Of a stretch of 38,456 bases of DNA, positions 1 through 38,456 are shown piece after piece. This stretch comes from Bacteroidales bacterium. GTDB lineage: Bacteria > Bacteroidota > Bacteroidia > Bacteroidales > CAIWKO01. The notes beneath the pieces are model-generated. The model did not search any database, was not told the origin of the DNA, and was given only the letters and a program-made list of their open reading frames with translations. Location: the NCBI GenBank assembly GCA_035389045.1, contig DAOORA010000041.1, positions 1 to 38,456 of the forward strand, in the 5' to 3' direction. The stretch's first letter is position 1. Every line of letters starts with the position of its first letter. A program made the translations under genes and the position numbers.

Positions 1-1597
1 TTAGTACCTTATTTTTAATATTGATGTATTTTTTGGCATAATATTCAATAGCAATAAGCTGGAATCAGCATCAGTTCTTTAATTTTCTGAGCCATTATGA
101 TGGTTTCTTTTCCAATTTTTGTGATGTAATATTTGTACGAATCGGTTGCCCTTTTTATTAGCCCGTGTACTATTAGCCGTTTTATTAGTCTGCTTATTTT
201 CCCACTATTAAACCCAAGTAATTTTCGCATGTTTTTGTTTCTGAACCCATTGATATTAAACTCACCACGAACAATGGCCGTTAAAACAATTAAATCATCG
301 GCACTAAAGAAGTTAAAACCCTTGTAGTTCCGATTATTCTCGCTTTTAGACGAGGTAACTTTCTCAAGTCTTTCTCTTCCAACTTCTTTATTGTCGAACG
401 CCGAAATAAATTCCAGATATCTTCTGTTTGAAGCTTTCAGATTGTCTGTCAAAAAGGAAAGGCTATAGATGTTTTTCTTTAGCCGAGCTGTCTCATAGGA
501 CGTTGTCCCGTCACGGTGTACTACCTCCCGGAAGTGTTTAAAAAAGCTAATATCGTTTGATGTTGTTTCTATGCGCAACATCTTACTGAACTTGTCGTAC
601 ATTTTTATCGACACTGATCCCATCGTATGTTTTATGCGGCTTCCTTCGATGCGCACATTGTAATTGTTGCCAATTTCGCCTTGATACCTTGGATCAAGTT
701 TATGCCCCAAAAATGTCGCGATGTTTTCAGGTTTTACCGTGTGTATGGCTGTGGCTATAAGTTCACTATAAATCTGTTGCAAATCTTCCTGTTTTTTAAA
801 CACAATATCAGTGGCATATTCTGCTTGCATCACGCTCCAATGATATCTCTGGTTAAAATCTTTGTAAACCGGACAGAATTGCCATGCAAACTCATCTAAT
901 TTGTGGTGAAGTTTCTCCACACTCATATTGTCCGATAGTTCTTGTGCTTTACCGACATCTTCTATACTATCAAATGCATTGTCCATCATGGTATATTTAA
1001 TCCCTGCCTGTTTCAATTCTGAAGCCAGCAAATTGTGACCGTTGATATAGACCTGCAAACGGAAAGGACACCATGTGGGTACGCGAACATATCCAAGACC
1101 AATTTGTGGGTCAATAAAATAAAAATAGTAATGTAAACATTTGCCCAGATCTGGCTTTAAGAATGTTTTACCCGTTTTCTTGTCGTGCCATGGTTTGTAT
1201 GTGTTACATGCCTCCATGACTGAGAGGATATGGACGATGCCAGAGTGATCGCCACGCTGTTTTATCTTCTCCGAAATAATGGACTCCTTCCTGATGCTTG
1301 ATTTGCGGATAAACTCAATGCTCAAACCGTTCTCTTTTGCTATTCGCTCGGCATTGGTTCGGATTACATCTTTGAACGGTTCAGCAAACTTGGGATAATC
1401 AAATATTTTCACCCCGTTCCGATACATAAAAGTTGTCATTCCCTGACTAAAGGAAATCTCTGGTATCGTGCCAGTTAAAATCAGCCTATCGTAACATGAA
1501 AGCACAAAGGCTATTTCGCTTTTGTATGTGTCTGTTAATAGTTTCATGCTATAAAGTTACGATTTTTACCTTTTTGGTTCTGGCTTGTCCAGGTTAG
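1..1597 (-). mobile_element. Putative IS-like element with a single Rep_trans-like/wHTH transposase gene; left end may be cut by the window edge
   Basis: A single ORF fills the segment. TTAG occurs at 1-4 and 1594-1597. A GC-richer motif TTTTGGTTCTGGCTTGTCCAGGTTAGG (1572-1598) sits just upstream of the ORF and resembles ends I recall for this element family. No terminal inverted repeats seen. Confidence 0.55.
45..1547 (-). CDS. Putative transposase (family often auto-annotated as 'MarR family regulator'); Rep_trans-like core plus C-terminal winged helix
   Basis: 500-aa ORF with motifs CYDRL..TG, CLHYYFYFIDP..GL.YVRVPTWCPFRLQ...NGH, QAEYATDIVF and IKMYDK....LRIETT. C-terminal GFRNK...ISRLIKRL..HGLIK......KYY.T..G resembles a winged helix. 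Confidence 0.7.
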   Translation of the reverse strand: MKLLTDTYKSEIAFVLSCYDRLILTGTIPEISFSQGMTTFMYRNGVKIFDYPKFAEPFKDVIRTNAERIAKENGLSIEFIRKSSIRKESIISEKIKQRGDHSGIVHILSVMEACNTYKPWHDKKTGKTFLKPDLGKCLHYYFYFIDPQIGLGYVRVPTWCPFRLQVYINGHNLLASELKQAGIKYTMMDNAFDSIEDVGKAQELSDNMSVEKLHHKLDEFAWQFCPVYKDFNQRYHWSVMQAEYATDIVFKKQEDLQQIYSELIATAIHTVKPENIATFLGHKLDPRYQGEIGNNYNVRIEGSRIKHTMGSVSIKMYDKFSKMLRIETTSNDISFFKHFREVVHRDGTTSYETARLKKNIYSLSFLTDNLKASNRRYLEFISAFDNKEVGRERLEKVTSSKSENNRNYKGFNFFSADDLIVLTAIVRGEFNINGFRNKNMRKLLGFNSGKISRLIKRLIVHGLIKRATDSYKYYITKIGKETIIMAQKIKELMLIPAYCY

Positions 1598-1703
1598 GTT
1601 GTATAAAAAAGGATAATGCAGACAAACAATGTTGTTTTGTCGATTATATCTGATATAACGTCGATTTCATTACTATTTAATTCCTTTGGGTTCTAAAATT
1701 ACA

Positions 1704-1711
1704 TAAATTTG
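1704..1711 (+). promoter_or_regulatory. Bacteroidota sigma-A -7 box (TAAATTTG)
   Basis: Matches TAnnTTTG 40 nt upstream of ATG 1752. The nearest TTTG (1685-1688) gives a 15-nt spacer, which is shorter than canonical. Confidence 0.45.
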
Positions 1712-1954
1712 TTTATCACTAAAAAAAAATAGAAATTAACAAGCGGATATCATGAAACAAATTATCCATGTAATTGTATGCATTGCACTTTTGACTTCTG
1801 CAAAAGTAAATGCCCAGCAGCAGGAATTGTATACATTTTGTACGGGAAGCAGTTATGCTTATTTATTGGATACCTCGTCCACTTCTACGTCAAGTTATTA
1901 TGCCCGGTGGAATATTGGAACAACACCTTATACGGCACATTTCCAAAAAGATAC

Positions 1955-2710: not shown

Positions 2711-5272
2711 GTGGGAAGCATGGGCGGCTGCACGACACTGGAAAACGGAAACATATTGGTAACCAATCCCAATACCCGCTTTTATGAATGTAACGGCACC
2801 GGAACAACGTATCAGAATGTAAGTGTAAGCACGGTTCAGTCTGACAGGCTAAAAAAATGCGAGGTATTGGGACCTTTTGTCACCGCTTCGGCATCGCCTG
2901 CGACTTTATGTGCCGGTAGTACATTGTCATTGACTTCTGCAGCATCGGCGCCCATGCAAAGCAATCCTTCGTATACTTATTCATGGACATCCAGCCCTTC
3001 AGGCTTTACATCCAGTCTTCAGAATCCCACTGTTACTCCGGCGACAGCCGGCACATACACCTATACCGTTGCCGTGTCAAGCGGTGGCTGTACCGGAACG
3101 GCTTCTGTACATGTAGTCGTGAATTCACCCACTGCAACTGCCAGCGTGAGCATTGGTGCCAGTCCCGGCGCTTCCATATGCTCCGGAACCGCTGTGACCT
3201 TTACAGCCACACCAACCAATGGGGGCACGTCACCCACCTATCAATGGAAGAAGGGAGGAACGAGCATTTCCGGCGCCACAAATTCAACCTATACTTCAGC
3301 ATCATTGGCCAGTGGCGATGTTATAACCTGCACGATGACATCCAATCTTGATTGTGTTTCGGGCTCGCCGGCCACATCCAATTCAGTTACCATGAGTGTG
3401 ACATCATTATCACCGGCCAGCGTGAGCATTGGTGCCAGTCCCGGCGCTTCCATATGCTCCGGAACCGCTGTGACCTTTACAGCCACACCAACCAATGGGG
3501 GCACGTCACCCACCTATCAATGGAAGAAGGGAGGAACGAGCATTTCCGGCGCCACAAATTCAACCTATACTTCAGCATCATTGGCCAGTGGCGATGTTAT
3601 AACCTGCACGATGACATCCAATCTTGACTGTGTTTCGGGCTCGCCGGCCACATCAAATTCCATTACGATGACAGTCACTGCTTTCCCAATTGCGGAAGCA
3701 GGAACAAGTGCAACCTATACAGGGACACCCGTAATAATAGGTGATCCTTCCAGTGGCCCCGGAACTTTCAGCTGGTTACCAACGGCTGGCTTGAGCAGTC
3801 CCGGCATAGCACAGCCATCAGCATCACCATCTGTTACAACAATCTATACCTTAACTGTGAACAACAATGGTTGTACGGCTACCGATGCTGTAACTATCAC
3901 TTTCGGAGGAATCGGACATACCATCAGCGGAAAAACCCGCTACGCAGCAAAAGCAAATACCGGCAACCCGGTACCTAATCCACCCACCTATAATACAGTT
4001 ATTTATAATATTGATAATGTGATTGTTATATTAAAAAGCAACCCTGCGGGAACGGAAGTTGCCCGCGATACCAGCGATGTGTTCGGCAATTATCAGTTCA
4101 GCAACATCGCAGATGGCAATTATATTCTTTCTTACGACAGGTATACTGCCGATACGATGCAGACATGCAATGATGTAAACGCAATAGATGTGGCGCTTGT
4201 GAAGTATTTTATCGGCGCTGATACCATGACTGATCCCTCGAGGAATTTTTCAGCAAAATATAAACGGGCAGCTAATGTAGATAATAATACGGCGATCAAT
4301 GCGATAGATATTGCAAGGATAAAAGGTAAAGTAGGTTCACCCTATAATGTTTCCAAGAACTTTCCCAAAGGAAACTGGGTGGCTATTGACACTGCTGTTA
4401 CGGTCGCCGGATCCGACATGAACATTACACTGAAAACCATCTGTTATGGTGATTTCAATGCATCCAGCACCAAATACCGTGACTCACTGGTCAACTGGAG
4501 CATGACCAAGTCGCTGTCACAGAATATCATCGCAGTATCAGAGGATTACATCACAACCGCTGACCCGGACTATTTTGAAATTCCCCTGCGGATAAGTACA
4601 AAAATGAATGATTTTTCGGCATTAGGCCTTGAACTGAATTATCCGGATCAGTATTACCAACTGGAAAATGCTGTGATGCAGGGTGCGGATAAATATGCCG
4701 GCACGGGGAAAATCAACCCCACTTTGGAAGAGATCATGGCCGGCGATGATGACCTGCTGGTGACTGATGAAGACGGCGTGATCAGGGTGGTATACGCCAC
4801 GACAGACCATTTTGATGTAGCCGCCAATGACGAAGTGATCCGGCTGGGTTTCCGGTCGCTGCAGGCCATGAATCCCGGAACTTTGGAATTTTCGTTATCC
4901 GGCACAGGTGTGATTGCTGATCAGTACGGCGAAGAAAATGAAGATGCCTATTTATCGATGCCCAAAATAATGGTACAGGGAAACAAGGCGGAAGCAGGAT
5001 TTGAATTTGAAGGCTTTCCCAACCCGTTTACCAATGAGGTGGCATTAAAATACAGTATCCCGGAATCCGGTAATGTAAAACTGATGGTTTATAATTCAAT
5101 AGGCGAGGTGGTTATGGAGGTGGTAAACGAAAGCCAGGCTGGCGGAAAACATACGGTGCGTTATTCACCGGAGGGCTTTCCGGCCGGCATGTATACATTT
5201 AAACTGGAGTATACCGGATACGAATCAAAGTGTAAAGTGTTGAAATTAATTCATTGCCCTCTGTATAAATAA
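2711..5272 (+). CDS. Residual C-terminal ORF of the disrupted gene: Ig-like repeats + dockerin/cohesin-like cassette + T9SS type A CTD
   Basis: 853-aa ORF with no signal peptide, in frame with the upstream fragment; ends FPNPF...Y.....G.VKL.VYN..GE.V...G.Y..KL.....KVLKL. Confidence 0.6.
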   Translation: MGSMGGCTTLENGNILVTNPNTRFYECNGTGTTYQNVSVSTVQSDRLKKCEVLGPFVTASASPATLCAGSTLSLTSAASAPMQSNPSYTYSWTSSPSGFTSSLQNPTVTPATAGTYTYTVAVSSGGCTGTASVHVVVNSPTATASVSIGASPGASICSGTAVTFTATPTNGGTSPTYQWKKGGTSISGATNSTYTSASLASGDVITCTMTSNLDCVSGSPATSNSVTMSVTSLSPASVSIGASPGASICSGTAVTFTATPTNGGTSPTYQWKKGGTSISGATNSTYTSASLASGDVITCTMTSNLDCVSGSPATSNSITMTVTAFPIAEAGTSATYTGTPVIIGDPSSGPGTFSWLPTAGLSSPGIAQPSASPSVTTIYTLTVNNNGCTATDAVTITFGGIGHTISGKTRYAAKANTGNPVPNPPTYNTVIYNIDNVIVILKSNPAGTEVARDTSDVFGNYQFSNIADGNYILSYDRYTADTMQTCNDVNAIDVALVKYFIGADTMTDPSRNFSAKYKRAANVDNNTAINAIDIARIKGKVGSPYNVSKNFPKGNWVAIDTAVTVAGSDMNITLKTICYGDFNASSTKYRDSLVNWSMTKSLSQNIIAVSEDYITTADPDYFEIPLRISTKMNDFSALGLELNYPDQYYQLENAVMQGADKYAGTGKINPTLEEIMAGDDDLLVTDEDGVIRVVYATTDHFDVAANDEVIRLGFRSLQAMNPGTLEFSLSGTGVIADQYGEENEDAYLSMPKIMVQGNKAEAGFEFEGFPNPFTNEVALKYSIPESGNVKLMVYNSIGEVVMEVVNESQAGGKHTVRYSPEGFPAGMYTFKLEYTGYESKCKVLKLIHCPLYK
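3140..3660 (+). repeat. Near-perfect tandem duplication, period 276 bp (92-aa Ig-like domain)
   Basis: 3140-3384 vs 3416-3660: 245 bp with 2 mismatches by hand comparison. Confidence 0.95.
4433..5256 (+). repeat. Long direct repeat, copy 1 (cohesin-like + CTD coding region); partner at 11918-12741
   Basis: Ungapped offset of 7485 bp; about 17 mismatches in the first 240 bp compared by hand. Confidence 0.92.
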
Positions 5273-34713: not shown

Positions 34714-35280
34714 AAATAATTTTTTGCAAAGTTATATTAAAAAAAGTACGGGGATCCTATGTTTTTATATTCTTTTAGAGCTAAAAATTAATATGAATTA
34801 TTTTACCAGTTATTTATGAATTAAATATAAAATAACACTGTATAATGCGATATTCTATTGAAAGTTAAGTTTTATAATTGTACGATTAATCGCATGACAA
34901 AATGGTCATCATTTTATTAAATTAATATTTAAATCTATTTGTTGTATATTCATTGGATAAATTAATATCTATTGGGTAATAATTTAAAAATAATAATAAA
35001 AAATTTTTATTGTATTTATTTTTTTATATTTGAAAGATTTTTAAATAAAAAATAAGTAAATCTATGCATAAAACAATTATGATATTTGAAATGTTTTTAT
35101 AATACTTGTAATTATTCACTGATAGCTGGATTAAAAACAAAAATGACTATTAAATTCTTAAAATCTAAAACAAAAATGGTATTTTTTTATTTTCGAATAT
35201 TATTCTAAATGGTTGATTCACTTTATTTTTATATTCTTTTTTTCATAAGAAGTAACTATAAATAATTAATAATTGACAAT

Positions 35281-38200
35281 ATGAAAAAATATATGCAAAC
35301 AAAAACTAAAGCATTATTAGCACTAATGGTTTTTTTGACCTTTGGTCAAAATGTATATTCCCAATGTACAGCCAATAATTCTGCTTATAGATATTCAACA
35401 TCTACAATCTATACACCAACAGGATCCTGGGGTTCCGTAACCTGGTCCAATGGTCATTGGCAACCTTTCTATGTATGGGATTCATATATTGTTCAGATAC
35501 GAACCTGTGATGCATCCTGGGATACACAATTAACCTTATATGGTTCAAATACTGCCGGTAGCAGTATAGCCTATAGTGATGATTGTTCTTACGGTGCATG
35601 TTCAAGTCATACTAATAACTCTATTATTGCATTTAGAAATGACGGTTCTGCTCAAACCGGACATTTACAGTTAAATAAGTATTCATGCAATTCAGATTTG
35701 GCAAATTCAACTACGGTTTATTATAGAGATATTCAGGAAACGCCATATATTTCCGGCGGAGGTATTACTATCTGCATTGGAACCGGTGTTACGCTTACAT
35801 CAAGTATGTCAACCTATAATGATGATTATTTAGATATTCAGTGGGGAACATCATCAGGAGGTACAGAAGTAAGTCCCGACGCAGGTTCGGTAACGGTTTA
35901 TCCGACAACTACCACTACATATTACATGAGGGGCGCTGTAAAAGCTTGTGGTACTCCGGGTACCGTATACACTGATGTTGCCAGTACAACGATTATAGTA
36001 AGTGATTCGCTGCCTGACACCAATCCATTTATTACTGCATCAGGCGATACTGTCTGTTATGGCAGCGCCACGATGTTAAATGCCTCAGTACCCGGCTGTA
36101 TGGTTTATTGGTATACCGATTCCTGTGGAGGTAATCTGTTGGGTACAGGAGATTCGATAAGCGTTACTCCTTTATCAGCGACCACCTATTATGCAAAAGC
36201 TGTCAACGGCTGTGGCTCGTCAGGCTGCAGCAGCATTACGATCGGGGTAAATCCTGTTCCAGGTCCGGTATACATCAGTAGAGATTCTGCTGAATGTACC
36301 GGTAGTAATATCCTTACCGCTTCAGGTGGTACGGGAGGCACTATATACTGGCAGGGAACAGTCAGCGGCGGCACTTCTACATCTATGCCATCCATTCAGC
36401 AAACGGTAACTAATTCAAATACTTATTATTTTAGGGCACGTAACAATCATTGCTGGGGAACACAGGGAAGTATATCGGTTACCACGTCCATGCCGGAACC
36501 TGTAACTGTCAGCGGCGGCGGAACTTACTGTGCTAATGCATTACTTACCGCTACAGGAGGTACCGGAGGCACCATATACTGGCAGGGAACAGTTAGCGGG
36601 GGTAACTCTACAGGAACACCGGGAACCTCCCAATCTGTTACTTCATCAGGAACCTATTACTTTCGTGCATACAATGTTGTCTGCGGGTGGGGTGCTGAAG
36701 GCGCTGCCACTCTGGTTGTTATTCCCAATGCAGCGGTGACCTCCGTCACAGGGACATCACCTATGTGTATCGGAGACAGCGCTGTCTATACTGCTAACGG
36801 TGTGGTACTTGGCGGGGGCGCGGGAGCATGGTCAAGCAGTAATACATCCGTGGCTACGGTGGCGTCAAACGCTACTGTTACAGCAGTTAGCGCAGGCACT
36901 GCCAATATCATCTATACCATCACCGGAGGTTGCGGAGGGACAAAGTCTGCCCTGAAAACAATTACAATTCTTCCCAATTCCGCTGTCGCTTCGGTTAGTG
37001 GTAATTCACCCTTATGTTCCGGAAGTACTGCACCTTATACAGCCAATGGCATTGTACTTGGTAGTGGAACAGGCGCATGGTCAAGCAGTAACACTGCCGT
37101 TGCAACGGTAGCTGTTAATGGCAATGTTACTGCGGTTGCTGCAGGAACAGCCAATATCGTTTATACCATTACCGGAGGATGTAATGGAACTAAATCTGCC
37201 CAACAAACACTTACTGTGAATTCTGTCCCCAATGCGGTCACGGTCAATGGAGGCGGCACATTCTGCGGAAGCAGCCCGACGCTCACTGCCGATGGCGGTA
37301 CAGGTGGAACTATCTACTGGCAGGGCACGACCAACAACGGTACTTCCACCGCTACTGCGTCCACGTCACAAACTGTGAGTGTTAACGGAACTTATTATTT
37401 CAGGGCGCTCAGTGCAGGCGGTTGCTGGGGACCTCAGGGATCGGCCAGTATACTGACCAGTCTTCCTGCAGCAGTGACGGTCAGTGGAGGTGGAAGCACC
37501 TGTAGTTCACGTACGCTAATTGCTTCCGGTGGTACCGGTGGTATCATCTACTGGCAGGGCACCACCAGCGGCGGCACTTCTACAGCCAGTGCCTCAACTG
37601 TAAGAACCGTTACTTCATCAGGCACTTATTATTTCAGAGCATTGAATGGCTGTGGATGGGGTTCCGGGGACAGTGCAGTGGTGATTGTTTATCCTGGCGC
37701 CGGTTCGGTCACCGTCAATGGTGCAGGCACATACTGCGGCAGCCAAACCCTCACAGCCACCGGTGGTACTAATGGCACTATATACTGGCAGGGTACCACC
37801 AGCGGAGGAACATCAACACTGACACTATCAACCTCGCAGTCTGTGACTTCTTCGGGAACATACTACTTCAGGGCATATAATGCCAACTGTGGCTGGGGAA
37901 CCCAGGGAAGCGTACTGGTATCCATACATACCCCTTCTACTGCGCCAACAGGTATCACGGGTATGTCATCCATTTGTACCGGAAATTCTCCTGTCCTGAC
38001 TCAGAGCGGAGGAACACTTGGCATCGGAGGCGTATGGTACTGGTATTCGGATAGCTGTGGCGGTAATTTAATAAGCAGTGGCTCAGCCTCTGTTACGGTG
38101 TCTCCGGTCAGCACCACCACCTACTATGTCCGTGCTGAAGGTATTTGTAATACCACCTCATGTGCAAGTATGATGGTAACCGTAAACCCATCTCCTGGCA

Positions 38201-38456
38201 TCGTGACGGTGAATGGCGCCGGGACTCACTGTGGAAGCGCAAACCTAACGGCGACAGGTGGTACCAATGGCATCATATACTGGCAGAATACAACCAGCGG
38301 TGGAACCTATACGGCAATGCCGTCTACATCTCAATCTGTTTCTTCGTCCGGAACATATTATTTTAGAGCATATAATTCTTGCGGATGGGGAACCGAAGGC
38401 TTTGCATCGGTGACGATAAATCCTGTACCAGGCATCGTGATGGTTAACGGAGCCGG
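35281..38456 (+). CDS. Large secreted Cys/Gly/Thr-rich Ig-like repeat protein (adhesin-like), 3'-truncated by the window; absent from the ORF track
   Basis: Hand translation from ATG 35281 (MKKYMQTKTKALLALMVFLTFGQNVYSQC) stays open to the end (~1058 codons). Six GGT.G.IYWQ.T..GT...TYYFRA...WG repeats, two Big_2-like WSSSNT.VATV...VTAV.AGTANI.YT domains, and WY.DSCGG...TTYY domains. Confidence 0.9.
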   Translation, partial: MKKYMQTKTKALLALMVFLTFGQNVYSQCTANNSAYRYSTSTIYTPTGSWGSVTWSNGHWQPFYVWDSYIVQIRTCDASWDTQLTLYGSNTAGSSIAYSDDCSYGACSSHTNNSIIAFRNDGSAQTGHLQLNKYSCNSDLANSTTVYYRDIQETPYISGGGITICIGTGVTLTSSMSTYNDDYLDIQWGTSSGGTEVSPDAGSVTVYPTTTTTYYMRGAVKACGTPGTVYTDVASTTIIVSDSLPDTNPFITASGDTVCYGSATMLNASVPGCMVYWYTDSCGGNLLGTGDSISVTPLSATTYYAKAVNGCGSSGCSSITIGVNPVPGPVYISRDSAECTGSNILTASGGTGGTIYWQGTVSGGTSTSMPSIQQTVTNSNTYYFRARNNHCWGTQGSISVTTSMPEPVTVSGGGTYCANALLTATGGTGGTIYWQGTVSGGNSTGTPGTSQSVTSSGTYYFRAYNVVCGWGAEGAATLVVIPNAAVTSVTGTSPMCIGDSAVYTANGVVLGGGAGAWSSSNTSVATVASNATVTAVSAGTANIIYTITGGCGGTKSALKTITILPNSAVASVSGNSPLCSGSTAPYTANGIVLGSGTGAWSSSNTAVATVAVNGNVTAVAAGTANIVYTITGGCNGTKSAQQTLTVNSVPNAVTVNGGGTFCGSSPTLTADGGTGGTIYWQGTTNNGTSTATASTSQTVSVNGTYYFRALSAGGCWGPQGSASILTSLPAAVTVSGGGSTCSSRTLIASGGTGGIIYWQGTTSGGTSTASASTVRTVTSSGTYYFRALNGCGWGSGDSAVVIVYPGAGSVTVNGAGTYCGSQTLTATGGTNGTIYWQGTTSGGTSTLTLSTSQSVTSSGTYYFRAYNANCGWGTQGSVLVSIHTPSTAPTGITGMSSICTGNSPVLTQSGGTLGIGGVWYWYSDSCGGNLISSGSASVTVSPVSTTTYYVRAEGICNTTSCASMMVTVNPSPGIVTVNGAGTHCGSANLTATGGTNGIIYWQNTTSGGTYTAMPSTSQSVSSSGTYYFRAYNSCGWGTEGFASVTINPVPGIVMVNGA

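Follow-up and report, generated by a model that had tools for sequence, protein, structure and literature searches.

The stretch of DNA considered here (the window: 38,456 nucleotides (nt) of a Bacteroidales bacterium, assembly GCA_035389045.1, contig DAOORA010000041.1, positions 1-38,456 of the forward strand) begins at its first letter with an element that bears on the question of which enzymes can move DNA. Window positions 1-1598, read on the minus strand, form a single-gene block which we interpret as an insertion sequence, its transposase being a tyrosine nickase of Rep_trans-like kind that bears a winged helix, the nick at CTAA included. We put the probability of this reading at roughly 0.7, the details of a single-strand or rolling-circle pathway being less certain, and the element most likely represents an unrecognised insertion-sequence family. 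It answers to the generic definition of an insertion sequence: its ends are defined, it carries a gene for mobility only, it lies in several contexts, and an empty site exists. The strongest link between element and enzyme class, one not seen by an earlier note made from the sequence of this DNA, is that the element is bracketed by CTAA; CT'AA is described as the conserved nick site of Rep_trans origins and of MOBT relaxases, one of which, RelSt3, forms a covalent intermediate and transfers strands (Laroussi et al., PMC9371924). Below, genomes are designated by G-numbers (G000 being that of the window), loci by L-numbers and metagenome runs, available as Logan contigs, by X1-X4.

Boundaries of the element and evidence of its mobility

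The ends were located by a blastn comparison of the first 2300 bases of the window with 79 related loci of species-representative genomes, the boundary mapping comprising 24 full-length relatives and 20 loci with aligned flanks. The stretch shared with the relatives opens near window 1598, 51 nt ahead of the ATG, and continues to window 1, which is the end of the contig; beyond these two points the 20 loci with flanks have unrelated sequences that differ from locus to locus. The whole block (1..1598, minus strand) accordingly has C-CTAA as its left end and ...GGTACTAA as its right. Measured between equivalent points of the two CTAA, the mobile unit is 1593 nt long, and the length of the element is 1590-1601 nt in the Bacteroidota subgroup, reaching 1926 nt elsewhere. 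No inverted repeat joins the termini, none of the 25 inverted-repeat pairs found linking both ends.

On the minus strand the left end opens with the junction CCTAA (1594..1598), which is at least partly target-derived and contains a candidate nick, CT^AA, between 1596 and 1595. After one further C comes a mini hairpin or palindrome (1580..1592) composed of the stem CTGG (1592-1589), the 5-nt loop ACAAG (1588-1584) and the stem CCAG (1583-1580), and then a conserved box, AACCAAA(A/C)AGG (1569..1579), between the hairpin and the start of the gene. Columns and pairings were counted in 51 loci from several phyla, chosen by a pattern that fixed the inner two stem pairs only. Columns 26-32 and 34 of the box are invariant, 204 of 204 stem cells are paired, and two of the four pairs covary (T-A 28 versus C-G 23; C-G 47, G-C 2 and T-G 2), counts that are inflated by kinship among the 51 sequences. 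The stem variant CCAG/CTGG is found in a miniature element at L032.

The sole gene of the element, that of the transposase, occupies 45..1547 of the minus strand (ATG start, 500 amino acids plus stop codon) and has many relatives. It is followed by a non-coding right end (1..44), which holds a box, ...GCCAAAAA..., and the terminal TAAGGTACTAA, the right CTAA itself (window 4..1) coinciding exactly with the end of the contig. The right terminus is identical in 18 of the 20 aligned loci, the other two ending in CTAC, and the consensus [TG]TAAG[GA]NNCTAA is kept across phyla. In some relatives a subterminal right-end hairpin is strong (in L047, -28.5 kcal/mol, z -16). Rfam and terminator scans of window 1-1800 gave nothing notable.

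That the block moves is evident in G041, which has two identical intact copies, one of them inserted in another repeat. Elsewhere in the genome this host repeat is present twice without interruption, reading ...attaac-CTAA-aaagtt..., with a single CTAA, and the filled site has CTAA at both junctions and a gain of 1593 nt relative to the empty one; this tetranucleotide, found on either side of the element and singly at the empty site, equals the nick sequence published for Rep_trans and MOBT enzymes. The preference for this target extends well beyond a single genome. A 21-nt core of the left end, picked without CTAA, matched at least 122 metagenome loci, 120 of them with 40 nt of upstream sequence. 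Among the matches listed, the upstream flanks are all different (120 of 120 usable matches), CCTAA stands directly 5' of the element in 100 of the 120 flanks and CTAA in 104, position -5 is C in 115, and no position from -20 to -6 exceeds 0.32 bit. The element therefore inserts at (C)CTAA in many unrelated places.

Matches per genome amount to one in the window's genome, two in G041, six in G044 and 29, mostly fragmentary, in G045. Derivatives also occur: copies with internal deletions but with both ends retained are present in G034 and G451, and miniature elements of about 140-160 nt, made of left and right ends only, lie at L032:2680-2830 and at L258 (the whole locus, reverse strand). Each of these two miniatures stands head-to-tail with another left end, one CTAA being held in common. 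In a copy from a metagenome-assembled genome (MAG) of Pseudomonadota, the right end finishes in 9.5 perfect tandem repeats of its final 8 nt, CTAAGTAC, CTAA included (L024:4552-4627), and in L025 the last 7 nt of the right end are present twice. The head-to-tail miniatures and the repeated 8-mer are consistent with re-use of the terminal CTAA or with missed termination.

The metagenome runs lead in the same direction. The element is a unitig of its own, of 1598-1599 nt, in both X1 and X2, and in X1, which is possibly the sample of origin, this unitig has two left and two right continuations, which explains why the window contig stops exactly at the terminus. X2 holds a copy with zero differences as its own unitig, and there the window's flank has no depth, depths of Logan contigs not being copy numbers; X3 and X4 hold a copy different in one letter, with flanks unlike those of the window. 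The sequence words sampled were almost absent from RNA runs. In 80 of the 120 best database clusters the longest contig does not exceed 2500 bp, which fits a repeat, though many contigs of that collection are short in any case.

Searches of 17 congeneric genomes, 22 from the same family and 300 others sampled across the phylum did not find the gene. Nor was an empty site found for the window's own copy: one flank is homologous to that of a congener (G002:C197) only as far as window 1605, beyond which G002 has another repeat that is multicopy in G000, and no counterpart of the other flank turned up. Neither the search with L086 nor the Paraburkholderia copy yielded a further empty site. The earlier note had suggested an insertion sequence, to be checked by copy counts and empty sites and to be doubted if the gene proved single-copy at a conserved syntenic locus. 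This part of its interpretation is borne out by the defined ends, the empty site in G041 and the 1 to 29 matches per genome, and the differing flanks, together with the failure to find the gene in 17 congeners and 300 sampled genomes of the phylum, speak against a conserved syntenic locus.

Some neighbouring repeats and ends may be recorded beside these results. The host repeat in G041 (filled copy L089:933-1454 and 3044-4467, on G041:C28; uninterrupted at G041:C9 and G041:C15) occurs at least three times in the genome, has relatives in G405 and may be a second, unrelated mobile element. The repeat beside the homologous site in G002 (L130:2250-2498) has 13 matches on other contigs of G000 (C12, C87, C111, C6, C4, C1, C16 and C122). 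Upstream of one Paludibacter copy, two left-end-like sequences stand 89 nt apart (L018:2483-2600); the outer has a diverged stem, TTGG/CCAG, and may be a solo-end remnant.

The transposase and its likeness to Rep_trans nickases

The residues that the family conserves were determined in an alignment of 64 full-length relatives with 28-55% identity to the query. Invariant in all 64 are D20, R21, G103, E112, Y141, Y143, G150, P161, N169, N190 and E243, as well as K315, Y317, R325 and E327; K87, R155, D247 and K319 are among the residues conserved to at least 90%. Two motifs, QAEYATDIVF (residues 241-250) and IKMYDKFSKMLRIETT (IKMYDK....LRIETT, residues 313-329), contain the invariant E243 and the invariant K315, Y317, R325 and E327, respectively, and therefore constitute the conserved core of the family.

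AlphaFold2 models built with the 64-sequence alignment reach a predicted local distance difference test (pLDDT) score of 94.7 over the full length and 96.1 over residues 1-390. In the model, residues 1-385 (393..1547, minus strand) fold as two similar alpha/beta repeats, and this predicted catalytic domain resembles the double repeat of TATA-binding protein (TBP) in the form in which Rep_trans enzymes have it. Foldseek against the PDB places four chains of 4CIJ (RepSTK1) first, with a probability of 1.0 and an E value of 7.6e-5 when the complete model is used and 1.3e-5 when the domain is, the next matches being RepDE (4CWE, 4CWC) and many TBPs. In VIA, a structure search of 48,161 chains independent of Foldseek, TBPs score Z 8.9 and 8.2, the seven best chains all being TBP-fold proteins, and RepDE (4cwc_A) and RepSTK1 (4cij_A) score Z 7.5 (root-mean-square deviation (rmsd) 4.7, 181 residues aligned) and Z 7.0 (rmsd 4.8, 196 aligned). 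The TBP fold is ascribed to Rep_trans enzymes in the literature (PMC13107129), and the arrangement that marks them, a TBP-like double repeat with the tyrosine on a beta strand, is found in the model too, where Y317 is predicted to lie in strand 312-319.

The comparison can be carried to single residues. As described by Carr et al. 2016 (PMC4797284), the metal ligands of RepDE (RepSTK1 in brackets) are D46 (D9), D142 (D116) and E214 (E196), and the nucleophile Y191 (Y179) lies inside R189-x-Y-x-K193; strand 6 carries R140-x-D142-x-A144-x-D146 and strand 11 carries R212-x-E214. These residues recur as invariant columns in our own alignment of 11 Rep_trans proteins. The proposed counterparts, all encoded on the minus strand, are Glu243 (codon 819..821) in Q241-x-E243-x-A245-x-D247, on the first strand of the second repeat, as a metal ligand facing the RepDE strand-6 motif; Tyr317 (597..599) in K315-x-Y317-x-K319, strand 312-319, as the nucleophile in place of R189-x-Y191-x-K193; Glu327 (567..569) in R325-x-E327, strand 323-330, as a metal ligand in place of R212-x-E214; and the invariant Asp20 (1488..1490), on the first strand, as a third metal ligand in place of D46. 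For the last of these, the VIA alignments begin with model residue 13 at RepDE 39 and model residue 12 at RepSTK1 1, and D20 would fall on D46 and D9 if the first residues align gap-free. Judged from alignment and model together, the invariant residues appear to follow the order and the matching strands of Rep_trans motifs N', I, III and IV, with QxE instead of RxD.

The resemblance to the Rep_trans proteins (PF02486: pT181 RepC/RepD, RepSTK1) and the MOBT relaxases (NicK, RelSt3, Tn916 Orf20) thus comprises a TBP-like double-repeat catalytic fold; an N-terminal Asp, [DE]xAxD, [KR]xYxK and RxE in the same order on beta strands; CTAA where the DNA must be cut, with a small hairpin adjoining; and a separate helix-turn-helix module for DNA recognition. 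The differences are nevertheless substantial. Sequence-profile similarity is not detectable, and the new family has Q-x-E where the others have R-x-D. The strands of the tyrosine and of RxE are 8 residues apart here versus 21 in Rep_trans, the intervening helix with E196 being missing, and the first repeat has additional invariant residues (R21, E112, Y141, Y143, R155, N169 and N190) without counterpart. The CTAA stands 1 nt 5' of the stem rather than in the loop of the hairpin. Finally, Rep_trans and MOBT proteins serve plasmids, phages or integrative and conjugative elements (ICEs), whereas the present gene constitutes a 1.6-kb single-gene repeat in chromosomes and megaplasmids.

The remaining part of the protein, residues ~390-500 (48..380, minus strand), is predicted to form a MarR-like winged helix-turn-helix (wHTH), with VIA Z scores of 9-10 to proteins of the MarR/ArsR type; the best match of model residues 397..500, to a MarR-type wHTH, has Z 9.9 and rmsd 2.2 over 84 aligned residues. 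At the level of sequence the C-terminus gives weak matches of MarR, HTH_27 and SarA type only, all below cut-off (Pfam E 0.03-0.2), and the score of the MarR hidden Markov model (HMM), 12.1 bits against a cut-off of 24.6, leaves the protein outside the MarR family. The wHTH fold is confined to some 110 of the 500 residues, unlike in MarR regulators of ~150 amino acids. Residues 1-390 match nothing in Pfam, NCBIfam, PHROGs or a PDB-chain sequence search. No transposase, HUH or recombinase family was found for the window protein in Pfam or NCBIfam at E<=10, NCBIfam returning 0 families at this threshold, and Pfam yielded no transposase family in the 64 relatives. The Pfam family HVO_A0261_N matches 29 of the 64 relatives, but in the wHTH only and below cut-off, and ISDol1, considered as a possible identity, was dropped, the papers that mention it being uninformative and no NCBIfam transposase model matching.

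Much of what the earlier note had read from the translation alone has therefore stood: both motifs are present, with invariant residues at their core; the C-terminal winged helix that it proposed is recovered by structure; and no transposase, HUH or recombinase family emerged from the profile searches. The Rep_trans motifs that it named agree with the account of Carr et al. (PMC4797284) and with our own 11-protein alignment. Its proposed Rep_trans relationship is upheld by structure, RepSTK1 being the top Foldseek match, and by the motifs, and is not supported by sequence profiles; the best structural matches are RepSTK1, RepDE and TBP, rather than the RNase H/DDE fold or true regulator that it had named as contrary outcomes. 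Its remark that the family is usually labelled 'MarR' also agrees with the source names, which include MarR, ArsR and predicted regulator. Taken together, its interpretation is supported, with less certainty for the single-strand or rolling-circle step.

Mode of movement and competing explanations

In our reading the enzyme is a nickase that probably moves the element as single-stranded or rolling-circle DNA. The protein would recognise the left-end hairpin and the AACCAAA box, D20, E243 and E327 would hold a divalent metal, and Tyr317 would nick the coding-sense strand at the CT^AA of the left junction, becoming joined to the 5' phosphate. A second nick, or a strand transfer, at the CT^AA of the right end would then free a single-stranded circle with one regenerated CTAA; the strand could leave by peeling, or rolling-circle synthesis starting at the free 3' OH could displace it, and the donor would be resealed or copied. 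Insertion of the circle at a CCTAA target would take place by the reverse reaction. In this scheme the point of nicking inside CTAA, the choice of strand, the circle of single-stranded DNA and the parts played by single residues are inferred. The invariant pair Y141/Y143 in the first repeat may supply a second nucleophile, and one pseudo-dimeric monomer could then handle both ends. A two-copy prediction of the full-length homodimer scored 0.24, below the mark of 0.42, and is evidence neither for nor against a homodimer.

Known single-strand transposons provide a frame for this proposal. Elements of the IS200/IS605 group have no terminal inverted repeats, carry hairpins at their ends, are small, and insert 3' of a short specific target without duplicating it, a similar sequence closing the other end. 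The present element is likewise small and without inverted repeats, and has a left-end hairpin or palindrome and a short fixed target. Its enzyme nevertheless has an unrelated fold, with no HUH motif and with the tyrosine on a beta strand, and stands outside the HUH Y1 class; it has 500 amino acids versus ~150 and a wHTH, and the same tetranucleotide is found at both junctions. To the rolling-circle elements of the HUH Y2 type (IS91, ISCR, Helitrons) it is similar in the lack of inverted repeats, in the tetranucleotide target and in head-to-tail arrangements that could stem from missed termination, and, more speculatively, the Y141/Y143 pair might parallel a two-tyrosine enzyme; the fold is again unrelated, and the element is without helicase or Zn-finger parts.

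A number of results weigh against our interpretation, either as a whole or in its details. In VIA the Z scores to Rep_trans are moderate and that of TBP itself is higher (8.9), and the fold match alone could therefore mean just a shared TBP-like fold. PF02486 has no match at E<=10 in the window protein, at E<=1 in the 64 relatives, or in G000, and a profile-profile comparison by hhalign with the 11 Rep_trans proteins falls short of significance (probability 0.4%, E 0.15). With sub-alignments chosen beforehand by us hhalign does pair SIKMYDK with FIRIYNK, at only P 0.006, and when relaxed also QAEYATD with TRLDLAFD, with low mact. As sequence profiles do not detect the relation, the family is to be regarded as a structural and motif relative of Rep_trans and not as a member of Pfam PF02486. 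As to movement, the binned genome of the window has a single copy, and no circle junction was seen, the natural right-left junction string of L032 having 0 exact matches in the metagenome contigs. The covarying stem of the left end could be a palindromic duplex binding site, bound by a dimer, instead of a hairpin, and the right-end hairpin is weak in the window copy (z -0.9). A 4-bp target duplication produced by a staggered cut would explain the CTAA junctions equally well.

This last point leads to an alternative in which element and protein are the same and movement is double-stranded, CTAA being cut with a 4-nt stagger and duplicated without any single-strand step. A precedent of sorts is furnished by IS5-type elements, which move by target-specific cut-and-paste and duplicate a YTAR tetranucleotide. 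The traits of the element (no inverted repeats, a left-end hairpin or palindrome, and a fixed CCTAA) accommodate both, because a CTAA that is duplicated and one that is carried by the element are indistinguishable by sequence: CTAA on both sides of the filled site and once in the empty one is formally a 4-bp direct repeat, and the left-end stem doubles as a duplex palindrome. We nevertheless think this alternative unlikely. Terminal inverted repeats are lacking; the protein is without a DDE/RNase H fold, and the only enzymes among its structural relatives nick single strands, so that the modelled fold argues against a staggered cut; the tetranucleotide that would be duplicated equals the Rep_trans nick site; and the miniatures stand head-to-tail with full elements with a single CTAA in common.

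The fold and motifs would also suit a protein that primarily initiates replication, or acts as a relaxase, for a minimal rolling-circle replicon or a mobilisable element in integrated form, since they match Rep_trans initiators and MOBT relaxases; the left end would then be a double-strand origin (dso) or an origin of transfer (oriT), and the chromosomal copies would be by-products of integration. The archaeal Rep-Arvir proteins (DUF7845, PF25227) are instructive in this regard, as these initiators have the same layout, a TBP-fold nickase recognisable by structure only and then a MarR-like wHTH, and use a downstream DNA hairpin as a cis element (PMC13107129). They differ in being archaeal, in the KHYYM context of their tyrosine and in serving as replication initiators of viruses and plasmids (PMC13107129), and PF25227 has no Pfam match in any of the 64 relatives at E<=1. 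Some contigs, such as L027 at 1751 bp, are exactly one unit long, which would suit a small replicon but is also the usual assembler output for repeats. All contexts seen are insertions into chromosomes or into megaplasmids of at least 199 kb with replicons of their own, there is no match among 50,697 phage records and no close relative among viral contigs in a single-protein search, and the element has two conserved ends, multiple and decayed copies, and miniature derivatives; on these grounds we consider such a replicon quite unlikely. Highly improbable, finally, is an ordinary non-mobile cellular regulator of the MarR/ArsR type, or a TBP-domain protein of a conflict system. The former is what the source annotations (MarR, ArsR or predicted transcriptional regulator) would imply, and the latter is hinted at by one of the 64 relatives, which weakly matches the TBP-TOTE conflict-system domain (E 0.05); yet the wHTH makes up only the last ~110 residues, PADLOC gives only a weak match of wHTH type, the gene was not found in the 17 congeners searched, and defined ends, an empty site and 120 differing flanks among the matches listed contradict a resident cellular gene.

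Spread of the family and its significance

Beyond the element, the window contains some features that may be noted in passing. Just upstream of a large open reading frame (ORF) at 2711-5272, two overlapping ORFs in different frames (1752-2267 and 1778-2683) together span 1752-2683, and the pair may be a frameshifted or split gene beside the insertion. ORF 2711-5272 encodes a large secreted protein and contains an internal tandem duplication of ~256 nt with 98% identity (3140-3395 versus 3416-3671). Towards the far end (35001-38456) the G+C content changes from 0.32 at 35-36 kb to 0.50-0.53 at 36-38 kb, inside ORF 35281-38454, which runs off the window.

The insertion-sequence family itself is large. 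Relatives of the transposase form at least 7971 clusters at 90% identity (7999 best candidates scored), and a full HMMER pass gave 6601 clusters at 50% identity with E<=1e-3, 717 of them with E<=1e-30. MAGs under the labels of at least 10 phyla contain relatives at 50-87% identity that share the ends of the window's element, and the ends are the same at just 50-60% protein identity in Pseudomonadota, Nitrospirota, Acidobacteriota, Chloroflexota (Dehalococcoidia), Bacillota, Planctomycetota, Desulfobacterota and others. A copy on a megaplasmid of Paraburkholderia phytofirmans, 44.5% identical, also has the same ends, its gene bearing the label ArsR regulator; in the 13 plasmid records that contain a homologue the annotation is either ArsR regulator or hypothetical protein. 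Elsewhere the source names of relatives are MarR, ArsR or predicted regulator, hypothetical protein and uncharacterized membrane protein, and a protein atlas offers unnamed clusters only, with scores below 0.9.

Whatever the exact pathway, an insertion sequence or transposase of the Rep_trans type or with a TBP fold was not found described in the full-text literature, ISfinder and subscription journals lying outside that search. Where a 2017 review sets out the roles of Rep_trans proteins, it gives plasmid and phage replication and ICE transfer and lists no transposase (PMC5714925), and a 2026 paper treats TBP-fold nickases as a replication-initiator fold (PMC13107129). On balance we incline to regard the family as the first of insertion sequences with a TBP-fold, Rep_trans-type tyrosine nickase as transposase, cutting CT^AA, inserting at CCTAA, spread over many phyla and annotated as MarR or ArsR. 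If this is true, it would constitute a catalytic class apart from the DDE, DEDD, HUH, serine, tyrosine-recombinase and Cas1 transposases, and would be a second, independent case, beside the HUH families, of a rolling-circle nickase turned transposase. Thousands of annotations as 'MarR/ArsR regulator' would then need correction, and because automatic detection of insertion sequences misses the element, estimates of mobile DNA in environmental genomes are affected. The short fixed target CCTAA and the simple ends make the system directly testable in vitro.

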